From: Gammaproteobacteria bacterium | Lineage (GTDB): Bacteria; Pseudomonadota; Gammaproteobacteria; GCA-001735895 | Reading direction: 5' to 3' | Assembly (NCBI GenBank): GCA_050118655.1 | Contig: JASFKL010000001.1 | Coordinates: forward strand, 186 to 64,185 | Length of the DNA: 64,000 bases | Part shown: in pieces, positions 4,618 through 19,026 of the stretch | Position numbering within the stretch: position 1 is the first letter of the stretch | How the letters are laid out: each line of letters begins with the position of its first letter | Position numbers and translations under genes: made by a program | Notes under the pieces: model-generated | What the model saw: only the letters and a program-made list of their open reading frames with translations | Told to the model about the DNA's origin: nothing | Database searches by the model: none

Positions 4618-5673
4618 ATGAGCCTTGAAATTGATCCCAAACAAATAAAATCCTTCTCTCCGATCAATTCTCTGAATCCAGAAAACGCTCAAGAATTAGT
4701 CAACAAAATTACCGCTACCCCGATCCAGGCGGGCCACTATATCTTCAAGAAAGGTGATATGGACAAGGCGCACGTCTACGTGCTCTCGGGCGAAGTGGAG
4801 CTGGTGCAGGACAAAAAGGTGGTCAAGACCATCAAGGCGGGCTCCCCGGAAGGCATGCAACCGCTGGCGCACGGATTTCCCCGGCCGGTGTCGGCGCGCG
4901 CCAAGGTCGCCTCGGTGGTCACCAAGATCAACAGCGACATGCTCGACATCATGCTGACCTGGGACCAGTCGGGCAGTTACTCGGTAGAACCCGTCGACGA
5001 AGAAGACGAAGAAACCGACTGGATGACCCGCATCCTGCAAACCCGGGCCTTCCATCGCATTCCGCCGGCCAATATCCAGGCGATGTTCATGCGCATGGAA
5101 TCGGTCAGCTTCAAGCCCGGCGAGAAAGTGATCGAACAGGATGCCGAGGGCGATTATTTCTACATCATCAAGGAAGGCCGTTGCCTGGTCACCCGCTCCA
5201 CGCCGGCCAACCCGAATGGCGTCAAGCTGGCGACCCTGTCGGTGGGCGACAGTTTCGGCGAGGAAGCGCTGATCTCCGACAGCAAGCGCAACGCGACGAT
5301 CACGATGCTGTCCGAGGGGCATTTGATGCGCCTCAACAAGGAGGATTTCAACTCGCTGCTGAACGAACCGCTGCTCAACTGGGTCGATTACGACGAGGCC
5401 AGGAAACTGGTCGATGCGGGCGCCGTCTGGTTCGACGTACGCCTGCCTACCGAGCACAAGGCCAAGCACATCAAGGGCAGTATCAATATCCCGCTGATTT
5501 TCCTGCGCATGAAGGCCAATTCGCTCGATACCGAAAAGAAATACGTCATCTATTGCGATACCGGCCGGCGCAGCTCCGCGGCCTCTTTTCTACTCAACGA
5601 AAAGGATATCGAGACCTTCGTATTGCGCGACGGCGTCGATACCGCCGAGCCCTCCGACCTGGTTACCAGCTAA
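4618..5673 (+). CDS. Tandem cyclic-nucleotide-binding domain protein with C-terminal rhodanese domain
   Basis: The second cNMP domain has a canonical phosphate-binding cassette (FGEEALISDSKRNATITM); the first domain is degenerate. The C-terminal rhodanese fold (WFDVRLPTEH...YVIYCDTGRRSSAAS) keeps the active-site Cys loop. Confidence 0.8.
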   Translation: MSLEIDPKQIKSFSPINSLNPENAQELVNKITATPIQAGHYIFKKGDMDKAHVYVLSGEVELVQDKKVVKTIKAGSPEGMQPLAHGFPRPVSARAKVASVVTKINSDMLDIMLTWDQSGSYSVEPVDEEDEETDWMTRILQTRAFHRIPPANIQAMFMRMESVSFKPGEKVIEQDAEGDYFYIIKEGRCLVTRSTPANPNGVKLATLSVGDSFGEEALISDSKRNATITMLSEGHLMRLNKEDFNSLLNEPLLNWVDYDEARKLVDAGAVWFDVRLPTEHKAKHIKGSINIPLIFLRMKANSLDTEKKYVIYCDTGRRSSAASFLLNEKDIETFVLRDGVDTAEPSDLVTS

Positions 5674-5702
5674 CGCGCCTCGACGCCGTCGGATCCCGCC
5701 GC

Positions 5703-7307
5703 TCAGCCGGCGTAGCCCGGGATTAGCGATTCGTCTATTTCGTCGATCTGCTCCGGATCGAGAAACTCCTCGGCGTAGTCGAGGTAAACCCGCTCGCGAA
5801 TGAAGATCTCGAAGATATCGGGATCGATGTGATTGTCCTTTTTCATGAATCCCATGATGCGCAGGCACTCGGACAGTTTCTTGCCATGCTTGTATGGCCG
5901 ATCGCTGGCGGTCAGGGCCTCGAAAATATCGGCCACCGCCATAATCCGGGCCTGTACCGACATTTCCTCCCTTTTGAGCCCGCGCGGGTATCCCGTGCCA
6001 TCCATTTTTTCATGATGTCCGCCGGCATACTCGGGTACGTTTTGCAAATTGCGGGGAAACGGCAGCGATTCCAGCATCTTGATGGTCGCGACGATATGGT
6101 TGTTGATGACTTCCCGCTCTTCATCGTTCAGCGTGCCGCGCTTGATACACAGGTTCATGACCTCGTCGTCGGTCAAAAGCGGCCGCGTCTCGCCGGACCC
6201 GTCCACCCATTCGAGCCCGGCGAGTTGCTTTACCCGGTCGATATCCTCGTCGCTCATGAATTCGCCGCCGACATTGGCCTTGCGCAAAAATTCGAAATCC
6301 TGCCGGTATTGCTCGCGACGGGATTCGAGATCCCTGTCCAGTTGTTCGACATCGGCCTTCGATCCGTTTGCCGCTAGACGTTTTTTCAAGTATTCGATTT
6401 CGGCGTCGCGCTGCAGGATCACGAAACGGGTTTCCAGCGCATTGATACGATCGTAAATCGTTTCCAGCTTGGTGGCCTTGTCCATCACGTACTCGGGGGT
6501 AACCACCTTGCCGCAATCGTGCAACCAGGCAGCGGTCTCGAGTTCGTAGCGATCCTTGTCGGTAATTCTGAAATCCTTCAGCGGCCCCTTGTCGTCCTGG
6601 TGCGCGGCCTCGGCAAGCATCATCGTCAATACCGGAATCCGCCGGCAATGACCGCCGGTATAGGGCGACTTGTCGTCGATCGCCGAGGCGATCATGCGGA
6701 TAAAAGATTCGAACAGGATTTGCAGTTCCGAGATCAGTCTCCGCTGGGTCAGCGCGACGGCTGCCTGGGAAGCCAGTGACTCGGCGAGTTGCTGTTCGAC
6801 GGCGCTGAAAACTTTGACCTCGCCGGTTTGCTCGTTCCTGGCATTGATCAATTGCAGCACGCCGATGATTTCCTTCTCGTGGTCCTTGAGCGGAAAGGTC
6901 AGCATGGAGCGGGTGCGGTAACCGGTCTTTTCGTCGAAGGCCCGCGTGCCCGAGAAATCGAAGCCGTCCTCGTTATAGGCGTCGGCAATGTTGATGGTTT
7001 CTCCGGACAGTACGCAGTGGGAGACGACGTTGGCATGGTTATCCTTGCCTTCGATCGACAGCGGTATCGCCGGAAAAGTGATTTCGTTACCCGAGGTACC
7101 GCCCATCTGTATATCGAGCGAATCGTTGGAAATGATCTCGAATCTGAGTTCGCCGTCGTTCAGAAAATACAGCGAGCCGCCATCCGCGTGGGTGAGCGAT
7201 TTTGCTCCCATCATGATCAGCTCGAGCAGCTTGGGCGTATCGTTTTCCGCCGACAGCGCGATGCCGATTTCATTTAACCGATCAATCCTGTCGAGCAATT
7301 CTGACAT
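5703..7307 (-). CDS. GAF domain / HD-GYP domain phosphodiesterase
   Basis: N-terminal GAF-like region, HD motif WLHDCGKV and GYP motif GGHHEKMDGTGYPRGL. About 168 residues separate the HD and HHE motifs. Confidence 0.85.
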   Translation of the reverse strand: MSELLDRIDRLNEIGIALSAENDTPKLLELIMMGAKSLTHADGGSLYFLNDGELRFEIISNDSLDIQMGGTSGNEITFPAIPLSIEGKDNHANVVSHCVLSGETINIADAYNEDGFDFSGTRAFDEKTGYRTRSMLTFPLKDHEKEIIGVLQLINARNEQTGEVKVFSAVEQQLAESLASQAAVALTQRRLISELQILFESFIRMIASAIDDKSPYTGGHCRRIPVLTMMLAEAAHQDDKGPLKDFRITDKDRYELETAAWLHDCGKVVTPEYVMDKATKLETIYDRINALETRFVILQRDAEIEYLKKRLAANGSKADVEQLDRDLESRREQYRQDFEFLRKANVGGEFMSDEDIDRVKQLAGLEWVDGSGETRPLLTDDEVMNLCIKRGTLNDEEREVINNHIVATIKMLESLPFPRNLQNVPEYAGGHHEKMDGTGYPRGLKREEMSVQARIMAVADIFEALTASDRPYKHGKKLSECLRIMGFMKKDNHIDPDIFEIFIRERVYLDYAEEFLDPEQIDEIDESLIPGYAG

Positions 7308-7634
7308 CTACTGGCACCTGCCCCTCGCGGAGGCCGAGCTACGCGAGCTTCGAAAGTCGCTCTATTCTAGGTGAATCCCCGGGCATTTCAATTCCGGGCC
7401 GGTTAAATTTTTAACCCCAAGCACTGGTAAAAAAGCGCATTCAACCTTATAGTTTAGAGGCATCACGATTCATAAGAATACCGGGGGGGATCCAAGCTGT
7501 TAACCAGTTCAAGGTGTTCGCATAAACTATTGAATATTATACGAATCGGATTTCTTCATTTTCCGGTCGCACACCCAGTAAAGTACGACTATAACAAGCT
7601 GGGTGACTAATAAGAATCAAACTATGGAGACGGT

Positions 7635-10265
7635 ATGAAAACCCGTTTTTGGAGTAGCGACTGGTTCGCCGGGCTGCTGATTACCATCGTGATTGTGGCG
7701 GTCTCGGGTTCCGGCCCCTTCCAAAGCCTGGAGCGCTCGTTTTACGACTGGGGCGTGCGCTCGACCGACAGGACTCCCTCCGACAAGATTGCGATCATCG
7801 CCATCGACGACGAGAGTATCGACAACCTGGGCCGCTGGCCCTGGCCGCGCGACCTCCACGCCGAATTGATCAACCGGCTTTCCGAGGGCGGAGCCAAGGT
7901 CATCGGTCAAACCGTATTTTTCCTCGAACCCCAGGTCGATCCGGGGTTGACCTATATCCGCGAACTGATCGAGTTTTTCTCTACCGCGAGCTTCGGCGAC
8001 GTTCCCGCCGATATCGATGCGCTGGGCGCGATGCTGGAACTGGGCGGCAACAATCGCAAGATAAACGATATCCTCGAATTCTATCTCCAATCGAGCCTGA
8101 ATACGCGTCTCAACCAGGATATCGAAACCCTGAAATCCCGAATGTTCGAAGCCGAGCAGGCGCTCAACACCGACGCCAAGCTCGCCGAGAGCATGGAAAA
8201 AGCCAAGAACGTCGTGCTGGCGATGGTCTTTTACCTGGGCATCCCGCGCGGCAAGCCCGACGAGGAACTGCCCGACTACGTGCTGAAAAACTCGATCAGC
8301 CAGATCCGTGACCGCGTATCGGCACAACCCAACGGCCTGTTCCCGATTCCGACCATCGATGCGCTGACACCGATTCCGGAAATCGGCCGCTACGCGGCGG
8401 CGATCGGCCATCTCAATACCCTGCCCGATATCGACGGCGGGGTTCGTTCAGAGCCGCTGGTGCTGCAGTACTACGACCGCTTCTTCCCGTCGATATCGCT
8501 GCAAATCGCCGCGCGCAGCCTGAACCTCGACACCAACGACATCCGCGTCAATCTGGCGGAGAGCGTCGAACTCGGCAGTCTGGCAATCAAGACCGATACC
8601 CAGCTGCAGATGAATACCTTTTACTACTCGAATCGCGATGGTTTTCCGGCATTTCCGGTGGATTCGTTTTACGACGTATTCACCGGCAAGATTCCGATCG
8701 AAAAGTATCGCGGCAAGATCGTTTTGATCGGCCCCACCGCCACCGGCGTCGGTACGCCGCAGGTCACTCCCATCGATCCCGCAATGGCGCCGGTACTGAC
8801 GCTCGCACACTCGGTTTCGAGCATCCTCAAGGAGGATTTTTTCATCGAGCCCGAATGGGGCTTCTGGGCGCGCATGGGTACCTTCCTCGTGGTTGCGCTC
8901 TACCTGATGCTGCTGATGCCGCGGTTAAAGGCCGGTGTCGCTTTCGTGGTCACCACGGTGCTGGTGCTGGCACTGATCGCCACCCATTACATACTGATGA
9001 CCGGCAGCACGATGTGGATTCAGTTGATGACCCCGGGGGCCCTGCTGGTGATCGGTTACCTGTTGATCACCACCAAGAGATTCCTGGTCACCGAGCGCGG
9101 CAAGGCCAAATCCGACGTGGAATCGGCCGAGAGCAACCGGATGCTGGGTATCGCATTTCAAACCCAGGGTCAACTCGACATGGCGTTCGAAAAATTCCGC
9201 AAGTGCAGCCCGGTCGACGAACAGGTGCTCGAGGCGATGTACAACCTGGCGCTGGATTTCGAGCGCAAGCGGCAATTCAACAAGGCCACTTCGGTGTACC
9301 AGTACATGGCCAAGCACGACAAGAGCTTCCGTGATATCGAAACCCGTATGAACCGCGCGCAGAAGATGGAAGAAACCGTCATGCTCGGCGGTAGCGGCGG
9401 ACATGCGGGCGGCACCCTGCTGCTCGATGGCAGCGGTGTCGAAAAACCGATGCTGGGCCGTTACGAAGTCGAAAAGGAACTCGGCAAGGGCGCCATGGGT
9501 ATCGTCTACCTGGGCAAGGACCCCAAGATCAGCCGGGTCGTGGCGATCAAGACCATGGCCCTGGCGCAGGAGTTCGAAGCCGACGAACTCGACGAGGTCA
9601 AGGAGCGGTTCTTCCGCGAGGCGGAAACCGCGGGGCGCCTGAATCATCCCAATATCGTAACCATTTACGATGCCGGCGAGGAGCACGATCTCGCCTATAT
9701 CGCGATGGAATTTCTCAAGGGCTACGACCTTACGAAACACTGCAAGCCCGATAACCTGCTGGAAATGAATACCGTGGTCAGCATCGTCCAGCGCGCCGCC
9801 GAGGGCCTCGATTTCGCGCACCGGCAAAACGTCGTGCACCGCGATATCAAGCCGGCCAACATCATGTACGAGCCGGAATCGGATACCATCAAGATTACCG
9901 ATTTCGGTATCGCGAGAATTACCGATTCGAGCAAGACCAAGACCGGGATGGTACTCGGCACGCCCTCTTACATGTCTCCCGAACAACTGGCGGGCAAAAA
10001 AGTCGATGGACGTTCCGACCTGTTTTCACTCGGCGTCATGCTTTACCAGATGCTTTGCGGATCCCTGCCCTTCAAGGCGGATTCGATGGCCAGTCTGATG
10101 TTCAAGATCACCAACGAAGAGGCCCCGGACATTCGCAGCGTGCGCGAGGATATACCCCATGGCCTGGTCGAAGTAATCGCCTTGGCCATGACCAAGGATG
10201 CCGACCAGCGATATCAGACAGGAGCCGATTTTGCCAATGCATTGAAAGCATTTCTGAATAATTGA
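7635..10265 (+). CDS. CHASE2 sensor - transmembrane - TPR-like - Ser/Thr protein kinase
   Basis: CHASE2 signature IAIIAIDDESIDNLGRWPWPRD follows an N-terminal TM segment, and three TM helices lie around aa 410-480. The kinase motifs are all present: LGKGAMGIVY, VAIK, HRDIKPAN, DFG, GTPSYMSPE. RBS GGAGA lies upstream of the ATG at 7635. Confidence 0.9.
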   Translation: MKTRFWSSDWFAGLLITIVIVAVSGSGPFQSLERSFYDWGVRSTDRTPSDKIAIIAIDDESIDNLGRWPWPRDLHAELINRLSEGGAKVIGQTVFFLEPQVDPGLTYIRELIEFFSTASFGDVPADIDALGAMLELGGNNRKINDILEFYLQSSLNTRLNQDIETLKSRMFEAEQALNTDAKLAESMEKAKNVVLAMVFYLGIPRGKPDEELPDYVLKNSISQIRDRVSAQPNGLFPIPTIDALTPIPEIGRYAAAIGHLNTLPDIDGGVRSEPLVLQYYDRFFPSISLQIAARSLNLDTNDIRVNLAESVELGSLAIKTDTQLQMNTFYYSNRDGFPAFPVDSFYDVFTGKIPIEKYRGKIVLIGPTATGVGTPQVTPIDPAMAPVLTLAHSVSSILKEDFFIEPEWGFWARMGTFLVVALYLMLLMPRLKAGVAFVVTTVLVLALIATHYILMTGSTMWIQLMTPGALLVIGYLLITTKRFLVTERGKAKSDVESAESNRMLGIAFQTQGQLDMAFEKFRKCSPVDEQVLEAMYNLALDFERKRQFNKATSVYQYMAKHDKSFRDIETRMNRAQKMEETVMLGGSGGHAGGTLLLDGSGVEKPMLGRYEVEKELGKGAMGIVYLGKDPKISRVVAIKTMALAQEFEADELDEVKERFFREAETAGRLNHPNIVTIYDAGEEHDLAYIAMEFLKGYDLTKHCKPDNLLEMNTVVSIVQRAAEGLDFAHRQNVVHRDIKPANIMYEPESDTIKITDFGIARITDSSKTKTGMVLGTPSYMSPEQLAGKKVDGRSDLFSLGVMLYQMLCGSLPFKADSMASLMFKITNEEAPDIRSVREDIPHGLVEVIALAMTKDADQRYQTGADFANALKAFLNN

Positions 10266-10279
10266 GCCCAGACTGTTTG

Positions 10280-11104
10280 ATGAATTTGCAAAACAAGATA
10301 ACCATCCAGGGCCTGACTGACACGGGGATAGTGCGCGGCAAGAACGAGGACGCGATCGGTTATGACAGCGCGCTGGGTCTCGTGGTTCTCGCCGATGGCA
10401 TGGGAGGTCATCGCGGCGGCGAAATAGCCAGCAGTATGACCGTCGATACGGTTATCAATCTCCTGCAGCAGCGGCTGCCGGAAATCAACTCCGGCGACGT
10501 CGACGAAGCCAGTGGATTTTCGATGGAGTCGATTTGTATCCAGGATGCCGTGGTCGCGGCCAACGAACTGGTCTACAAGACCGCCGAGGCCAATCCCGAA
10601 CACAAGGGAATGGGCACCACGATCGTGGTATTGCAGTTCTACAACAATTCCTTCTCCCTCGCCCATATCGGCGACTCGCGCTGTTATCGTCTGCGCAATG
10701 ACAAGCTCGAACAGATTACCAAGGATCACTCCCTGTTACAGGAACTCATCGACCGCGGCTTCTATACGCCCGAAGAAGCGCGCAATTCGATGAACAAGAA
10801 TCTCGTGACGCGTGCCCTGGGCATCGATCCGATCGTCATGCCGGACATACAGGAGGATATAGTCCTGAAAAATGACATATATTTGCTATGTTCAGATGGG
10901 TTAACGGATTTAGTCGAAGACGAAGATATATACTTAACTATTAAGCAATTTAGTGCTAATCTAGAAGAAGCTGCCAAGCAATTGATTACAAAGGCAAACC
11001 AGAATGGCGGAAAGGATAATATTTCGGTAATGCTGTGCCGGATTGACGATGATTTTTCGTCCCGGCAAGGCTGGTTCAACAAGATTGTCGGCTGGTTCGA
11101 CTAA
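10280..11104 (+). CDS. PP2C-family Ser/Thr protein phosphatase
   Basis: RGKNEDA, LADGMGGH, GMGTT, LCSDGL and GGKDNISV motifs. The ATG at 10280 was preferred over the track's TTG at 10262. The gene starts 14 nt after the kinase stop. Confidence 0.9.
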   Translation: MNLQNKITIQGLTDTGIVRGKNEDAIGYDSALGLVVLADGMGGHRGGEIASSMTVDTVINLLQQRLPEINSGDVDEASGFSMESICIQDAVVAANELVYKTAEANPEHKGMGTTIVVLQFYNNSFSLAHIGDSRCYRLRNDKLEQITKDHSLLQELIDRGFYTPEEARNSMNKNLVTRALGIDPIVMPDIQEDIVLKNDIYLLCSDGLTDLVEDEDIYLTIKQFSANLEEAAKQLITKANQNGGKDNISVMLCRIDDDFSSRQGWFNKIVGWFD

Positions 11105-11150
11105 CGGATTACACACCCAGTACAAACTACTCTACAGGCTGGATAATAAA

Positions 11151-11873
11151 ATGGTCGCAAAACTGATCACTACTTCAAGCACGGGCGAAAAAACCGAGTA
11201 TGAACTGGTCAATGAAACCACCACGATTGGGCGTAAGCCGGGTAACGATATTCAAATCGATAATCTGTCAGTCAGCGGCAGGCATGCGCAGGTAATCACC
11301 ATCCTCGAAGATTCATTTCTGGAAGATCTCGGCAGCACCAACGGCACTTACGTCAACGGCAAACTGGTAAAAAAACACGCGCTCGAAGACGGCGACAGTA
11401 TCACCCTGGGCAAGTATCAAATCACCTACCAGAATAACTCCGGCGGCGGTGAACAGGATTTCGAACAAACCATGATTATCCGCCCCGGCGAAGCGGGCAT
11501 GCCCGAAGAAGCCGGCAGCAAGGAAATCGACAAGTCGGTGCAAAAAATTTCAGCGGCGATCGCCTCGGAGGCAGCCAGCACAGCCTCGTCGCCGATGTCT
11601 AACAAGGAAGCCTGCCTGCAATTGCTCAGCGGCGCCAACGCCGGCAAGGAGCTGGTATTGACCAAGGCCCTGACCACCATCGGCCAGCCGGGTGTGCAGG
11701 TGGCGGCGATCACCCGCCGTCCGCAAGGCTTTTTCCTGATTCACGTCGATGGCGGCCCGAACAACAATGTCCCGAAAGTCGGCGGCTCGGAGATCGGCTC
11801 GAACGCGCACGAACTCAAGAGCCACGACATTATCGAAGTAGCCGGCGTAAAAATGGAGTTCTACCTCAAATAA
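11151..11873 (+). CDS. FHA domain protein (canonical N-terminal FHA plus degenerate C-terminal FHA-like domain)
   Basis: TIGRKPGNDIQI...SGRHAQ...STNGTYVNG gives the canonical G-R / S-x-x-H / N-G pattern. The C-terminal half (TIGQPGVQVAAI...VGGSEI...DIIEVAGVKMEF) has the fold pattern but lacks the R, S and H residues. The start was moved to the ATG at 11151. Confidence 0.85.
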   Translation: MVAKLITTSSTGEKTEYELVNETTTIGRKPGNDIQIDNLSVSGRHAQVITILEDSFLEDLGSTNGTYVNGKLVKKHALEDGDSITLGKYQITYQNNSGGGEQDFEQTMIIRPGEAGMPEEAGSKEIDKSVQKISAAIASEAASTASSPMSNKEACLQLLSGANAGKELVLTKALTTIGQPGVQVAAITRRPQGFFLIHVDGGPNNNVPKVGGSEIGSNAHELKSHDIIEVAGVKMEFYLK

Positions 11874-11913
11874 AGCCGTTCCTGCTCGTCCGCATTGAAA
11901 CCGGGGGCAAACA

Positions 11914-14145
11914 ATGCAATTACAGCGCATAGTCAGGCTGGTGCTTAGCGCACTGATCCTGCTGGTCATCCTGCTCGACACCTCCGGAGTTTACAAGTAT
12001 CCATTCATCAAGCAGCTGGAAAACTGGACTTACGACGCGCGGCTGAACTTTACCCGTCCCGATACCGTCGACGATCGCGTGGTTATCGTCGATATCGACG
12101 AAACCTCGCTCGCCGAGGTCGGCCGCTGGCCCTGGGGTCGCGACCAGCTCGCGCGCATCGTCGACAACCTGTTCGACTTTTACGGGGCCGACGTGGTCGC
12201 CTTCGATATCGTATTCGCCGAAAAAGACGAGAGCTCCGGACTGGAACAGTTCGAGCAGCTGGCGCGAACCACGTTGCGCGGCGACGAGGAATATATCGAG
12301 GCGCTCGATAAGATCCGGCCGAGCCTCAAACACGACGAAATTTTCGCGCAGAGCCTGGTCGGTAAAAACGTCGTTCTCGGCTATTACTTCAAGTCCAGGT
12401 TGCAGGAAGGAGAAAGCGGTGTCACCGGCCTCCTGCCCCCCGCATTGACCAGGATGGACAGGCAGTGGAGCGAACGCCTGCCGATCAACAAGGCGGTAGG
12501 CTACGGCGGCAACCTGGAAATACTGCAAACCTCGGCACGCTCCGGCGGCTACTTCGACAACCCCTTCGTCGATGCCGACGGCGTATTTCGCCGCGTGCCG
12601 CTGGTGCAGTCCTACCAGGGCTACCTGTTCGCCTCGCTGGCTCTCGCCACTACCCAGGCGTATCTCGACGCCGACGGTATCGAGCTGGCGATCGAAACCG
12701 AGGGAACGCGCGGCGAGAACGAATATTTCGCGCTGGAGACGATTAACCTGAAGAATCACAAGATTCCCGTGGACGCCAACGGCGCGGTGTTCGTGCCCTA
12801 CCGCGGCAGGCAGGGAAGCTTTCCCTATATCCCCGCCCACGAAGTGCTGAGCCGCAAGACCAACCCGCTGGCGCTAAAGAACAAGATCGTACTGATCGGC
12901 ACCTCGGCACCGGGCCTGCTCGACCTGCGCTCTACTCCAGTACAAAACATTTATCCCGGGGTCGAGGTCCATGCCAATATCATTTCCGGCATCCTCGACG
13001 ATCGTATCAAGCACAAGCCGGCCTGGACGGTGGGTTACGAACTCGTGTTACTGATAGTCATCGCGGTCAGCATGGCCTTGCTGTTGCCGCTGGTTTCGCC
13101 GCTGCTGGCGGCGACCGGGACGCTCGGGATTACCGGCCTGGTGGTCGCCGGAACCTTCGTCGCCTGGAACAACAACCTGATCCTGCCGCTGGCGAGCCCG
13201 CTGCTGCTGATTCTGTTGCTGTTCATGCTGCACATGTCCTACGGATTCTTCATCGAGTCCCGTGGCAAGCGGCAGCTCGCTAACCTGTTCGGGCACTACA
13301 TACCGCCCGAACTGGTCGACGAGATGAGCGAATCGCCCGAGGAATATTCGCTCGAGGGCGAGAACCGTGAAATGACCGTGCTGTTTTCGGACGTGCGCGG
13401 ATTCACGTCGATCTCGGAAGGCATGGACCCGAAACAGTTGACCCAGCTCATGAACGCGCTGTTGACGCCGATGACGCGCGTCATCCACAAGAACCGGGGT
13501 ACGATAGACAAGTACATGGGAGATGCCATCATGGCCTTCTGGGGCGCGCCGCTGGCCAATGCCGAGCATGCCCGGCACGCGCTCTATGCCGCACTCCAGA
13601 TGATGGAAGAACTGAAGATAATGCAGGAAGACTTCAAGCAACGCGGCTGGCCGACGGTCAACATCGGTATCGGCTTGAACACCGGCGACATGAACGTCGG
13701 CAACATGGGATCGGAATTCCGCATGGCTTATACCGTGCTCGGCGACGCGGTCAACCTGGGTTCGAGGCTCGAGGGCCTGACCAAGGAATACGGCGTCAAC
13801 ATCATCGTCAGCGAATCCACCAAGGCGGCGATACCCGAATTCGTATTCCGAGAACTCGACCTGGTCAGGGTGAAAGGCAAGAACGAACCGGTCGCAATTT
13901 TCGAACCGGTCGGGCACAAAAACGATCTCGACAAGTCGGTCACCTCGGAGATCAGCGAATACCGCAAGGCATTGATGAACTTTCGCTCCCAGTCCTGGGA
14001 CAAGGCCGAGCTCGATTTCTTCAACCTCAACCGCATCAACCCGGACCGGCAGCTATACCAGGTCTACCTCGAACGTATCGCGGTCTACCGCAGGGAGCCG
14101 CCCGGAGAGGGCTGGGACGGCGTTTTTACGCACACCACGAAGTAA
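11914..14145 (+). CDS. CHASE2 sensor - transmembrane - class III adenylate/guanylate cyclase
   Basis: CHASE2 signature VVIVDIDETSLAEVGRWPWGRD, followed by a TM cluster around aa 370-450. Cyclase motifs are MTVLFSDVRGFTS, IDKYMGDAIMAFWGAP and YTVLGDAVNLGSRLE. Confidence 0.9.
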   Translation: MQLQRIVRLVLSALILLVILLDTSGVYKYPFIKQLENWTYDARLNFTRPDTVDDRVVIVDIDETSLAEVGRWPWGRDQLARIVDNLFDFYGADVVAFDIVFAEKDESSGLEQFEQLARTTLRGDEEYIEALDKIRPSLKHDEIFAQSLVGKNVVLGYYFKSRLQEGESGVTGLLPPALTRMDRQWSERLPINKAVGYGGNLEILQTSARSGGYFDNPFVDADGVFRRVPLVQSYQGYLFASLALATTQAYLDADGIELAIETEGTRGENEYFALETINLKNHKIPVDANGAVFVPYRGRQGSFPYIPAHEVLSRKTNPLALKNKIVLIGTSAPGLLDLRSTPVQNIYPGVEVHANIISGILDDRIKHKPAWTVGYELVLLIVIAVSMALLLPLVSPLLAATGTLGITGLVVAGTFVAWNNNLILPLASPLLLILLLFMLHMSYGFFIESRGKRQLANLFGHYIPPELVDEMSESPEEYSLEGENREMTVLFSDVRGFTSISEGMDPKQLTQLMNALLTPMTRVIHKNRGTIDKYMGDAIMAFWGAPLANAEHARHALYAALQMMEELKIMQEDFKQRGWPTVNIGIGLNTGDMNVGNMGSEFRMAYTVLGDAVNLGSRLEGLTKEYGVNIIVSESTKAAIPEFVFRELDLVRVKGKNEPVAIFEPVGHKNDLDKSVTSEISEYRKALMNFRSQSWDKAELDFFNLNRINPDRQLYQVYLERIAVYRREPPGEGWDGVFTHTTK

Positions 14146-14151
14146 TACCGT

Positions 14152-15390
14152 TTACCAGCAGGCGCGTAATTCCCGCGCCAGTATGCCGACGCCTTTTTCG
14201 AGTTCCTCCTCGCTCTGCGCATAGTTCATGCGCACGCAACTCTCGGCGTGCGCGGACACGTTCTGCTGCCCGGGAAAGAAGTACTTGCCAGGCACGACCA
14301 GTAAACCGTTGCGCTTGAGCCGCTGGTAGAGTTCGGTAGTGGTCACGCCGAGATCTTCGAACCACAGCCACAGGAACATCGATCCCTCGGGTTTGTGGAT
14401 GTGCAGCCGCGGATCCTCGATCGCCTCGCGCAGCAGCCTGACCGCGAGTTCCGAGCGCTGCAGGTAAAACGGCCGGATGATATCGTCGCAAAGCGGTTGC
14501 AGGGCATCGTCGACGATCAGCTGGCGGACGATTTCGGCGCCGAGACCCGCCGGCGCGAGGCTGGTTATCGCGGTCATGTTGGAAAAATAGCGAATCAACT
14601 CCTCGTTGGCGATCACGATCCCGGTACGCGCGCCGGGCAACCCGAGCTTCGACAGGCTCATGCAAACGATGCAGTTATCGTTCCAGAAGGGATTGACGCC
14701 GGTGAATATGATGTTCGGGAAAGGCGTGCCGTAGGCATTGTCGATCAACAGCGGAACGTCGTGGTCGCGGGCGATCTGGTCGAGTTGCCCGCACTCGGCG
14801 TCGGTGAGCACGTTGCCGCTCGGATTGGTAGGCCGAGAAACGCAAATCAGGCCCACGGAATCGTCGGCCTCGAGCTGCTCGAAGTCGACCTGGTACTTGA
14901 AAAACCCGTCATCGAGGTGCTGAATCCTGGCCTCCTGGCTGGCGAGCAATCCCTCTTCGATACCGACGTCGCAGTAGCCGATATACTCGGGCACCAGCGG
15001 GATCAGAACGCGTTTACGGCCTTGCCTCGAGCGGCCGGCAAAAGAATTGAATAGAATGAAGAACGAACTCTGGCTACCGTGGGTCAAGGCGATATTGCGG
15101 CTGCTGATCGGCCAGCCGTAACGATCCCGGAAGTACTCGGCCAGCGCTTCGAGAAAGCCCGCCCTGCCCTGCGGCGCATCGTAGTTGGAAAGCGCCTCGA
15201 CCAGGGCGCCCGATTCCCGCAGTTTGTCGAGCACCTGGCCCACTATCTTCTTGACCTCGGGGATCGAAGCGGGATTGCCGCCGCCGAGCATGACCACGCC
15301 GGGTTGCGCGAGACCCTCGCTCAAATCGTCCATCAGGTGGGTAATACCGGAGTAACCGTTGAAATGTTCGCCGAATTCAGAAAATTTCAT
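14152..15390 (-). CDS. avtA: Valine--pyruvate (class I/II PLP) aminotransferase
   Basis: The N-terminus MKFSEFGEHFNGYSGITHLMDDLSEGLAQPGVVMLGGGNPASIPE parallels E. coli AvtA as I recall it. The PLP-lysine region is MSLSKLGLPGAR. Confidence 0.75.
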   Translation of the reverse strand: MKFSEFGEHFNGYSGITHLMDDLSEGLAQPGVVMLGGGNPASIPEVKKIVGQVLDKLRESGALVEALSNYDAPQGRAGFLEALAEYFRDRYGWPISSRNIALTHGSQSSFFILFNSFAGRSRQGRKRVLIPLVPEYIGYCDVGIEEGLLASQEARIQHLDDGFFKYQVDFEQLEADDSVGLICVSRPTNPSGNVLTDAECGQLDQIARDHDVPLLIDNAYGTPFPNIIFTGVNPFWNDNCIVCMSLSKLGLPGARTGIVIANEELIRYFSNMTAITSLAPAGLGAEIVRQLIVDDALQPLCDDIIRPFYLQRSELAVRLLREAIEDPRLHIHKPEGSMFLWLWFEDLGVTTTELYQRLKRNGLLVVPGKYFFPGQQNVSAHAESCVRMNYAQSEEELEKGVGILARELRACW

Positions 15391-18865: not shown

Positions 18866-18942
18866 TGGCGGAGTGGACGGGACTCGAACCCGCGACCCCC
18901 GGCGTGACAGGCCGGTATTCTAACCAACTGAACTACCACTCC
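18866..18942 (-). tRNA. tRNA-Asp (GTC)
   Basis: The reverse complement GGAGTGGTAGTTCAGTTGGTTAGAATACCGGCCTGTCACGCCGGGGGTCGCGGGTTCGAGTCCCGTCCACTCCGCCA is near-identical to E. coli tRNA-Asp. CCA is encoded. Confidence 0.95.
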
Positions 18943-18950
18943 AGATTAGG

Positions 18951-19026
18951 TGGTGGGTGCTGACGGGATCGAACCGCCGACCCTCGCCTTGTAAGGGCGA
19001 TGCTCTCCCAGCTGAGCTAAGCACCC
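18951..19026 (-). tRNA. tRNA-Val (TAC)
   Basis: The reverse complement is GGGTGCTTAGCTCAGCTGGGAGAGCATCGCCCTTACAAGGCGAGGGTCGGCGGTTCGATCCCGTCAGCACCCACCA, with anticodon loop CTTACAA. Confidence 0.95.

Follow-up and report, generated by a model that had tools for sequence, protein, structure and literature searches.

The 64-kb stretch of contig JASFKL010000001.1 analyzed here (the window), which comes from an uncultured gammaproteobacterium abundant in metagenomes, carries a four-gene unit encoding, in this order, a CHASE2-TPR-Ser/Thr kinase, an Stp1-type PP2C phosphatase, a two-domain FHA protein and a CHASE2 class IIIb adenylate cyclase. Genome comparison shows that this four-gene set is real and that it is conserved in many beta- and gammaproteobacteria; it is a credible candidate for a new way of tuning cyclic AMP (cAMP) signalling. 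We propose, tentatively and with a little less than even confidence, that the cassette joins a Hanks-type phospho-threonine switch to cAMP signalling by means of a GarA-like FHA adaptor, which would set the adjacent cyclase. The four genes are the following:

7635-10265, forward strand: receptor Ser/Thr kinase of 876 amino acids (Pfam, hydropathy, TPR profile, conservation in 16 orthologues)
10280-11104, forward strand: Stp1/IreP-type PP2C Ser/Thr phosphatase of 274 amino acids, ATG start (NF033484, Pfam PP2C)
11151-11873, forward strand: two-domain FHA protein of 240 amino acids, ATG start (Pfam, alignment of 23 orthologues, hhalign, Foldseek)
11914-14145, forward strand: receptor class IIIb adenylate cyclase of 743 amino acids (Pfam, match to CyaB 3r5g, conservation in 56 homologues)

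The intergenic gaps measure 14, 46 and 40 nucleotides (nt), exactly as given in a first-pass annotation that had been made from the letters of this DNA; the listing of open reading frames (ORFs) and a direct reading of the junctions agree on this layout, and identical calls for the four genes were found on public metagenome contigs of identical sequence. A profile-HMM search, which that annotation had named as a check on its domain assignments, matched CHASE2 in both sensors as well as Pkinase, PP2C, FHA and Guanylate_cyc (Pfam), and all of the catalytic motifs and N-terminal signatures that it had listed are present in the translations of the four genes. Judged by these residues, the four proteins keep intact catalytic or phospho-threonine-binding sites. 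The shortness of the gaps, a terminator scan that found no terminator-like sites or hairpins in any of the three, and the conserved gene order provide indirect evidence that the four genes are read as a single transcript.

Conservation of the four-gene set

The first protein-homologue searches returned only relatives of more than 80% identity, and the census was built on a representative search together with genome and metagenome scans. The representative search provided full-length CHASE2 cyclases (38-53% identical), 55 of which were aligned with the cyclase of the window; this alignment led to 80 species-level genome loci, in which every ORF was scored against the window proteins and 56 of which were assessable. 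The first-pass annotation had treated the four genes as one unit, and they are indeed co-conserved, the full set of kinase, PP2C, FHA and cyclase being present in 16 of the 56 assessable genomes. Five further loci possess PP2C and FHA with no linked kinase, with unrelated genes located upstream of PP2C, and 35 possess none of kinase, PP2C and FHA.

All 16 full sets belong to Beta- or Gammaproteobacteria and include representatives of Propionivibrio, Sulfuritalea, Nitrosomonadales, Polaromonas and Ramlibacter, as well as the cultured strain Chitinimonas viridis CECT 7703 (L024). Gene order and strand are identical in 14 of them, with cyclases 42-53% identical to that of the window; one of the remaining two sets is convergent with the cyclase and the other is split from it by 4 kb of unrelated genes. 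The adjacency of the FHA and cyclase genes is the most constant feature of the cyclase-bearing loci, the distance from the end of the FHA gene to the cyclase being 27-439 nt in all but three of the FHA-bearing loci. On a distance tree the FHA-linked cyclases are distributed over two beta/gammaproteobacterial clades, with five parsimony changes, which argues that the linkage between FHA and cyclase is old, largely vertical and specific to a subfamily.

A second census was anchored on the FHA protein: metagenome contigs were searched with an FHA alignment led by its most divergent member, and loci were scored as in the cyclase census. PP2C was found directly upstream of FHA in all 66 assessable loci, and a kinase upstream of PP2C in 35 of 39. 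The kinases of loci that have no cyclase are devoid of CHASE2, being either held by a single transmembrane (TM) anchor or soluble; a CHASE2-bearing kinase occurs with a CHASE2 cyclase in eight of nine loci, and a CHASE2-less kinase with a cyclase-less locus likewise in eight of nine. This joint retention or loss of the kinase CHASE2 domain and the CHASE2 cyclase fits a coupling of the two receptors. A cyclase-less locus that was fully annotated comprises kinase, PP2C, FHA, phosphodiesterase and pilin. Reduced cyclase-less variants with these five genes, the kinase being devoid of CHASE2 (L154 at 5535-10390, L101 and L105), occupy a chromosomal position flanked by sucCD, the same as that of full clusters.

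A threonine motif in the FHA protein

The FHA protein is composed of a canonical FHA domain (residues 24-87), the segment DFEQT107MIIRP (nt 11457-11486), a variable Ala/Pro-rich linker and a degenerate FHA-like domain (approximately residues 153-239). Its Pfam FHA match (77.1 bits) covers residues 24-87 only, and its phospho-threonine-binding residues, R28, S42, H45 and N64, are invariant among 23 orthologues. The C-terminal domain is devoid of the phospho-threonine-binding residues and is FHA-like in fold only. Its description as a degenerate second FHA-like domain in the first-pass annotation is corroborated by a profile-profile comparison of the N- and C-terminal halves (hhalign, 94% probability, E 1e-7); BLASTP between the two halves gave no alignment, and the relationship emerges at the profile level only. 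An AlphaFold2 model of the protein, computed from a 66-sequence alignment (mean pLDDT 51, approximately 65-83 for the C-terminal domain alone), was used qualitatively; in Foldseek this low-confidence model gave fold matches to FHA domains only, with the aligned part of the query unreported. The closest solved and curated relatives of the FHA domain are GarA and OdhI.

Among the 23 orthologues E105 and T107 are nearly invariant, within the consensus D-F-E-(K/Q)-T107-M-(V/I)-(L/I)-R-P. This conserved GarA/OdhI-like threonine motif had been overlooked in the first-pass annotation. Over both censuses it is present in all 51 FHA proteins that have a linked kinase, and absent from four of the eight that have none (Fisher p = 1.5e-4, a value that ignores shared ancestry). 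That the motif tracks the linked kinase is the best evidence for its being a kinase substrate or docking site, and we read the FHA protein, on the strength of these sequence patterns, as a putative phospho-switch driven by the kinase and PP2C.

Receptor kinase, phosphatase and adenylate cyclase

The kinase comprises a TM segment, a CHASE2 domain (residues 17-422), three TM segments, two TPR (approximately 493-570), the segment EET581VML and a kinase domain (610-859), with Pfam scores of 174.2 bits for CHASE2 (cutoff 26.3) and 191 bits for Pkinase. Hydropathy places TM stretches at residues 5-30 and 409-480, so that the CHASE2 domain is predicted to be periplasmic. The linker behind it had been called TPR-like, and rightly so: residues 485-605, used as a profile, match consensus TPR proteins and the TPR region of OGT. 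The protein has the features of a Hanks-type kinase, the motifs GKGAMG, VAIK, HRDIKPAN, DFG and SPE being present and at least 90% conserved in 16 orthologues, across which T768 and T770 of the activation loop as well as T581 are conserved. T581 lies in the segment E-E-T581-V-M-L-G directly before the kinase domain, which is conserved as ETV(M/I)L and resembles the motif of the FHA protein. In locus L006 (5447-6784) the CHASE2 part of the kinase gene is split into several frames, which is likely an assembly frameshift or a pseudogene in this metagenome-assembled genome.

The CHASE2 domains of the two sensors share 23% identity over 430 alignment columns (E 3e-17); by this comparison they are members of one family, and a recent duplication is excluded as a reading. 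The N-terminal signature which the first-pass annotation had found in both sensors, and from which it derived their paralogy, is indeed present. It is no special evidence of paralogy, GRWPW-R being a family-wide CHASE2 motif, with W72, P73, W74 and R76 nearly invariant in 56 cyclases. The further suggestion that one extracytoplasmic cue is converted into two outputs finds no support, because two domains that are merely 23% identical give no support for a shared ligand.

The PP2C phosphatase scores 248.7 bits against the NCBIfam model for Stp1/IreP (NF033484, equivalog cutoff 230) and hence belongs to this family; its Pfam PP2C score is 55 bits, and the metal motifs DGMGGH, GDSR, SDGL and GKDN are present.

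The cyclase is built of a TM segment, a CHASE2 domain (residues 15-385), three TM segments, a catalytic domain (485-658) and a conserved C-terminal extension of approximately 75 amino acids. Pfam scores are 204 bits for CHASE2 (cutoff 26.3) and 82 bits for Guanylate_cyc, and TM stretches at residues 1-28 and 369-449 again predict a periplasmic CHASE2 domain. The catalytic domain is closest to that of Pseudomonas aeruginosa CyaB (3r5g, E 1.3e-35), followed by cyanobacterial class IIIb cyclases. Alignment to 3r5g identifies the metal-binding Asp residues (FSDVRGFT, YMGD), the Lys of IDKYMGD, the Thr of AYTVLGD, and the Asn and Arg of NLGSRLE; the corresponding residues D493, K533, D537, T607, N614 and R618 are nearly invariant in 56 homologues, in agreement with class IIIb. 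Among class III cyclases a Lys and Thr substrate pair marks the subclass IIIb adenylate cyclases. The first-pass annotation had assigned this pair to IDKYMGD and AYTVLGD, and the positions coincide with those of CyaB (PDB 3r5g). Given Lys533, Thr607 and the match to CyaB, the prediction that the product is cAMP is well founded. The C-terminal extension (residues 670-743, nt 13921-14142) ends in W-D-G-V, has no Pfam match, and occurs in both FHA-linked and unlinked CHASE2 cyclases.

Neighbouring cyclic-nucleotide genes

Upstream of the four-gene unit are two genes that were overlooked in the first-pass annotation and that, from their recurrence in related clusters, belong to a conserved module:

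4618-5673, forward strand: protein in which two cyclic nucleotide (cNMP)-binding domains are joined to a rhodanese domain, likely to read the product of the cyclase (Pfam, betaproteobacterial orthologue)
5703-7307, reverse strand, divergent from the kinase: GAF and HD-GYP protein, likely cNMP-regulated phosphodiesterase of cyclic di-GMP (c-di-GMP) (Pfam GAF, HD_5)

The cNMP-binding/rhodanese protein scores 98.7 bits for cNMP_binding, in two stretches, and 48 bits for Rhodanese, and has no DNA-binding domain; in betaproteobacterial clusters an orthologue with 37% identity follows approximately 1 kb downstream of the cyclase. The GAF-HD-GYP protein has both the HD and the GYP motif, and its GAF domain gives matches to those of PDE5 and PDE2, which bind cNMP. 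With 58% identity to its orthologue in the Sulfuritalea cluster, the protein is more conserved than the cyclase, and it is co-conserved in many loci. It shares its architecture with Tlr0485 and with PmGH, the latter (4mcw) being its closest solved structure; ligand binding and activity of the window protein are predicted. A published precedent is Tlr0485, cited in 10.1101/2021.11.05.467447, a GAF-HD-GYP phosphodiesterase of c-di-GMP that is activated by cAMP. The GAF-HD-GYP gene is also found beside a CHASE2 cyclase without the triad of kinase, PP2C and FHA, namely in Alteromonas, Rheinheimera, Pseudoalteromonas, Duganella and Pseudoduganella (L054, L055, L068, L070, L037, L066).

In Sulfuritalea and Rhodocyclaceae the genes form a same-strand run with tiny gaps, composed of CHASE2 kinase, PP2C, FHA, CHASE2 cyclase, phosphodiesterase, cNMP-binding/rhodanese protein, GAF-MshEN-T2SSE (PilB-like) ATPase, GAF-HD-GYP protein and type IV pilin. 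The phosphodiesterase of the betaproteobacterial clusters is of the MBL-fold class II cNMP type and also matches the anti-Pycsar Apyc1 family; both it and the PilB-like ATPase were found again in many loci. Same-strand clusters of eight or nine genes are exemplified by L014 (5635-18010), whose last gene encodes a GT41/TPR glycosyltransferase, and L083 (6568-19696), which ends in a pilin gene; their gene content suggests control of a pilus by cAMP and c-di-GMP. Pilins that follow FHA or the cyclase are accompanied by genes of the pilin-glycosylation type, for a PglL/Wzy_C ligase and for GT2 and GT41-TPR glycosyltransferases, in L100 (848-5569), L115 (8730-11182) and L044 (12355-16582). Searched with the betaproteobacterial proteins and with prepilin motifs, the 64 kb of the window contain no phosphodiesterase of this type, no PilB-like ATPase and no prepilin gene.

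Two gammaproteobacterial loci, L009 (7744-9809) and L062 (16909-18995), have a GAF-SpoIIE phosphatase and two small ORFs (142 and 110 amino acids) beside the cyclase, a set that resembles a partner-switching module; L062 also has a nearby gene for an 846-amino-acid FecR-domain protein. The theme that recurs in these loci is a cyclase set among proteins that read cyclic nucleotides and an enzyme that degrades them.

Proposed mechanism and alternative explanations

Starting from the observed gene content, conservation and motif correlations, we infer the protein-protein steps as follows. A periplasmic cue acting on the CHASE2 domain of the kinase would lead to autophosphorylation at the activation loop (T768/T770) and probably also at T581. 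The canonical N-terminal FHA domain of the adaptor would dock on a phospho-threonine of the kinase, which would then phosphorylate T107; phospho-T107 would fold into the adaptor's own FHA pocket, as in GarA and OdhI, thereby flipping the adaptor between a target-binding and a non-binding state, and PP2C would reset it by reopening the pocket. In the window organism the adjacent cyclase is the most likely target, the kinase branch setting the gain of cAMP synthesis, with the cyclase's own CHASE2 domain as a second input. Two proteins may read the cAMP, namely the cNMP-binding/rhodanese protein and, through its GAF domain, the HD-GYP enzyme, and cAMP would in this way be coupled to the breakdown of c-di-GMP. 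A broader version of this scheme, which we regard as less likely than not, would make the triad a dedicated regulator of a class III adenylate cyclase in Proteobacteria, with a GarA-like FHA switch that binds the CHASE2 cyclase, a coupled and possibly hetero-oligomeric pair of CHASE2 receptors, and cAMP acting on c-di-GMP turnover and, in Betaproteobacteria, on type IV pili and the PilB-like ATPase.

The first-pass annotation had already suggested a gating of the cyclase by the triad, with the FHA protein as the coupling element. Direct gating is plausible, to judge by the position of the FHA gene directly upstream of the cyclase in almost every FHA-bearing cyclase locus; other observations weigh against it. 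In the FHA-anchored census the gene after FHA is the CHASE2 cyclase in 22 of 44 loci and an ATPase in one, whereas it is a phosphodiesterase, with the cyclase absent, in 17; it matches no probe in the remaining four, in two of which (L100, L115) pilin and pilin-glycosylation genes adjoin FHA. This sample was ranked against a Comamonadaceae-type sequence and is not free of bias. No cytoplasmic residue, Ser/Thr or other, sets the 22 FHA-linked cyclases apart from the 36 unlinked ones. Confidence in the FHA-protein model is low overall (mean pLDDT 51), and the correlations of motif with kinase and of CHASE2 with CHASE2 ignore shared ancestry and may reflect few evolutionary events. The invariant core consists of PP2C and FHA, usually with the kinase, and thus the triad is not strictly dedicated to the cyclase; since it is found without a cyclase, before a phosphodiesterase or a pilin, the target of the adaptor need not be the cyclase.

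The same counts support an explanation to which we assign a substantial, yet clearly minority, share of our confidence, namely that the triad and the cyclase are merely co-transcribed, separate inputs, and that the FHA switch acts elsewhere in the same physiology, for instance on the cNMP phosphodiesterase or the HD-GYP enzyme, on the PilB-like ATPase or the machinery of type IV pili, or on a protein encoded at an unlinked site. About half of the FHA-anchored loci have no cyclase, their next gene encoding the phosphodiesterase, the ATPase or a pilin; a pilin gene ends the betaproteobacterial clusters; and cyclase residues do not track the presence of FHA. The window, however, has neither phosphodiesterase nor PilB-like ATPase nor prepilin, yet has FHA directly before the cyclase, an adjacency that is the most constant trait of the cyclase loci, and the CHASE2 cyclase and a CHASE2 domain in the kinase occur together or are missing together. 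It is improbable, in our view, that the cyclase is itself the substrate of the kinase, with the FHA protein binding its phospho-threonine in the manner of classical FHA adaptors. The gene order (kinase, PP2C, FHA, cyclase) and the intact residues of the FHA pocket would suit such an arrangement, as would fusions known elsewhere, of which the TOMM kinase/cyclase family (a sub-cutoff match) and the FHA domain of the cyclase-like CT664 (3gqs) are examples. The conserved cytoplasmic Ser/Thr residues of FHA-linked cyclases, however, are catalytic-core positions that are equally conserved in unlinked ones, and the threonine motif that tracks the kinase is located in the FHA protein, outside the cyclase. 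That no cytoplasmic residue is peculiar to the FHA-linked cyclases speaks against a phospho-acceptor dedicated to this purpose in the cyclase and fits a regulated threonine on the adaptor, as in the switch that we favour.

In PADLOC the kinase domain matches PD-T4-6 with 306 bits, the cyclase domain matches PycC with 114 bits, and the cNMP-binding domain matches a Pycsar effector with 48 bits. Together with the match of the betaproteobacterial phosphodiesterase to the Apyc1 family, these scores raise the question of anti-phage defence of the Pycsar or PD-T4-6 kind, in which the cyclase would produce a cyclic nucleotide as an alarm and the kinase would serve as an abortive-infection effector. 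We consider this very improbable, and the locus was not assigned to either system: the matches are generic and at domain level, a toxic effector domain is absent, both sensors are periplasm-facing receptors, the flanks are housekeeping genes, inheritance is vertical and syntenic across two proteobacterial classes, and the Lys/Thr pair points to ATP and to no pyrimidine nucleotide. Hardly any weight falls on a chance neighbourhood of common signalling genes without functional connection. All of the domains are abundant in Proteobacteria, and promoter and terminator signals stand at the background of shuffled sequence; the order and strand of the genes nevertheless recur in 14 further species at approximately 45-50% protein identity, and the PP2C-FHA pairing holds in 66 of 66 loci.

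Comparison with known systems

Triads of Hanks kinase, PP2C and FHA protein gate secretion systems and central metabolism. In GarA and OdhI, PknG or PknB phosphorylates the motif ETTSVFR, which is thereafter bound by the FHA pocket of the same protein. The FHA protein of the window shares with these systems of Mycobacterium and Corynebacterium (PknG/PknB, PstP) the size of a small stand-alone FHA protein and the closest solved FHA relative, a threonine motif of the E-x-T-x-V-(F/L)-R type outside the FHA domain (the T107 motif resembles ETTSVFR of GarA), and regulation by a kinase of the Hanks type and a phosphatase of the PP2C type, the targets being enzymes. It differs in that the threonine motif lies C-terminal to the FHA domain, in contrast to its N-terminal position in GarA and OdhI, and in its extra degenerate FHA-like domain; in addition, it occurs in a proteobacterial host together with a CHASE2 receptor kinase, and presumably acts on a cAMP enzyme instead of on enzymes of the tricarboxylic acid cycle or glutamate metabolism. 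With 66 bits against a cutoff of 200 for the GarA/OdhI family (NF041660), and without an N-terminal ETTS motif, the protein is not a member of that family. By analogy, it may work like GarA while standing outside its family.

The PpkA/PppA/Fha1 system of the P. aeruginosa type VI secretion system (T6SS) similarly combines a PP2C phosphatase and an FHA protein with a Hanks kinase that is anchored in the membrane and carries a periplasmic sensor; the three are encoded together in a Gram-negative bacterium and gate another machine. In the window, by contrast, the kinase domain is C-terminal, behind CHASE2, and the partners are cAMP-related and, in Betaproteobacteria, pilin-related. The T6SS family Fha1/TagH (TIGR03354) was rejected for the FHA protein, with 46.2 bits against a cutoff of 120.25, and no T6SS genes adjoin the cluster. 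DgcB of Bdellovibrio bacteriovorus (FHA-GGDEF; 6hbz, 6hc0, 6hc1), found both as a fold match of the FHA-protein model and as a sequence match of the FHA domain, is a nucleotide cyclase under the control of FHA and a phospho-threonine tail; there FHA and cyclase form a single fused protein that makes c-di-GMP, whereas here FHA is a separate protein and the cyclase a membrane class III enzyme with CHASE2.

Receptor adenylate cyclases with CHASE2 include CyaD1, CyaD2 and CyaK of Sinorhizobium meliloti, with which the window cyclase shares the CHASE2-TM-cyclase architecture. CyaB of P. aeruginosa (3r5g) has the closest catalytic domain and the same Lys/Thr pair, but a MASE2 membrane domain in place of CHASE2. 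To our knowledge, none of these four cyclases has been described with a linked kinase/PP2C/FHA triad. Cya1 of Synechocystis is a fusion of FHA and cyclase, and the FHA domain of the window protein matches CT664 of Chlamydia (PDB 3gqs, 'adenylate cyclase-like protein'). In such proteins FHA and class III cyclase domains work together in one polypeptide, and this is support of the 'Rosetta stone' kind for a functional link of the two, while these fusions differ from the present locus in having no CHASE2 sensors and no second FHA-like domain.

The first-pass annotation knew of no functional description of such a unit, and none was found in a full-text literature search, which covered few of the subscription journals; nor did that search find a proteobacterial cAMP module or class III adenylate cyclase described as being under the control of a Hanks kinase/PP2C/FHA triad. 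The parts and their logic are familiar, while their combination, its wide conservation, and the link to cAMP, c-di-GMP and, in Betaproteobacteria, pilin appear to be undescribed. The cluster is widespread in environmental Beta- and Gammaproteobacteria, and with at least one cultured carrier strain it is open to experiment. It offers a specific hypothesis, the T107 phospho-switch, and a defined set of putative readers of cAMP; it is also a natural system in which the signals perceived by CHASE2 domains could be sought. If the proposed mechanism is true, phospho-threonine, cAMP and c-di-GMP signalling would be joined at one locus, and this crosstalk would bear on type IV pili in Betaproteobacteria.

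Genomic setting

The unit is preceded by the following region:

7308-7634, no strand assigned: divergent intergenic region of 327 nt, presumed promoter region of the four-gene unit (sequence read)

A promoter scan found no sigma-70-like site on the forward strand of 7308-7634, the number of promoter and terminator sites in the scan was no higher than in shuffled sequence, and an inverted-repeat search at the junctions of the unit found nothing notable. Rfam gave no match in 7308-7634, its only matches in the window being two tRNAs at 18.9-19.0 kb. A plasmid location was rejected, the 6.5-kb region yielding only a 43-nt chance match to plasmids, and the locus is chromosomal. The outer neighbours are housekeeping genes encoding a lytic transglycosylase, an aminotransferase, FabI and PpiD. 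The stop codon of the cyclase lies 6 nt from that of the convergent aminotransferase gene (14145-14152), which leaves no space for a terminator hairpin. Downstream of ppiD are two adjoining tRNA genes on the reverse strand (18869-19026).

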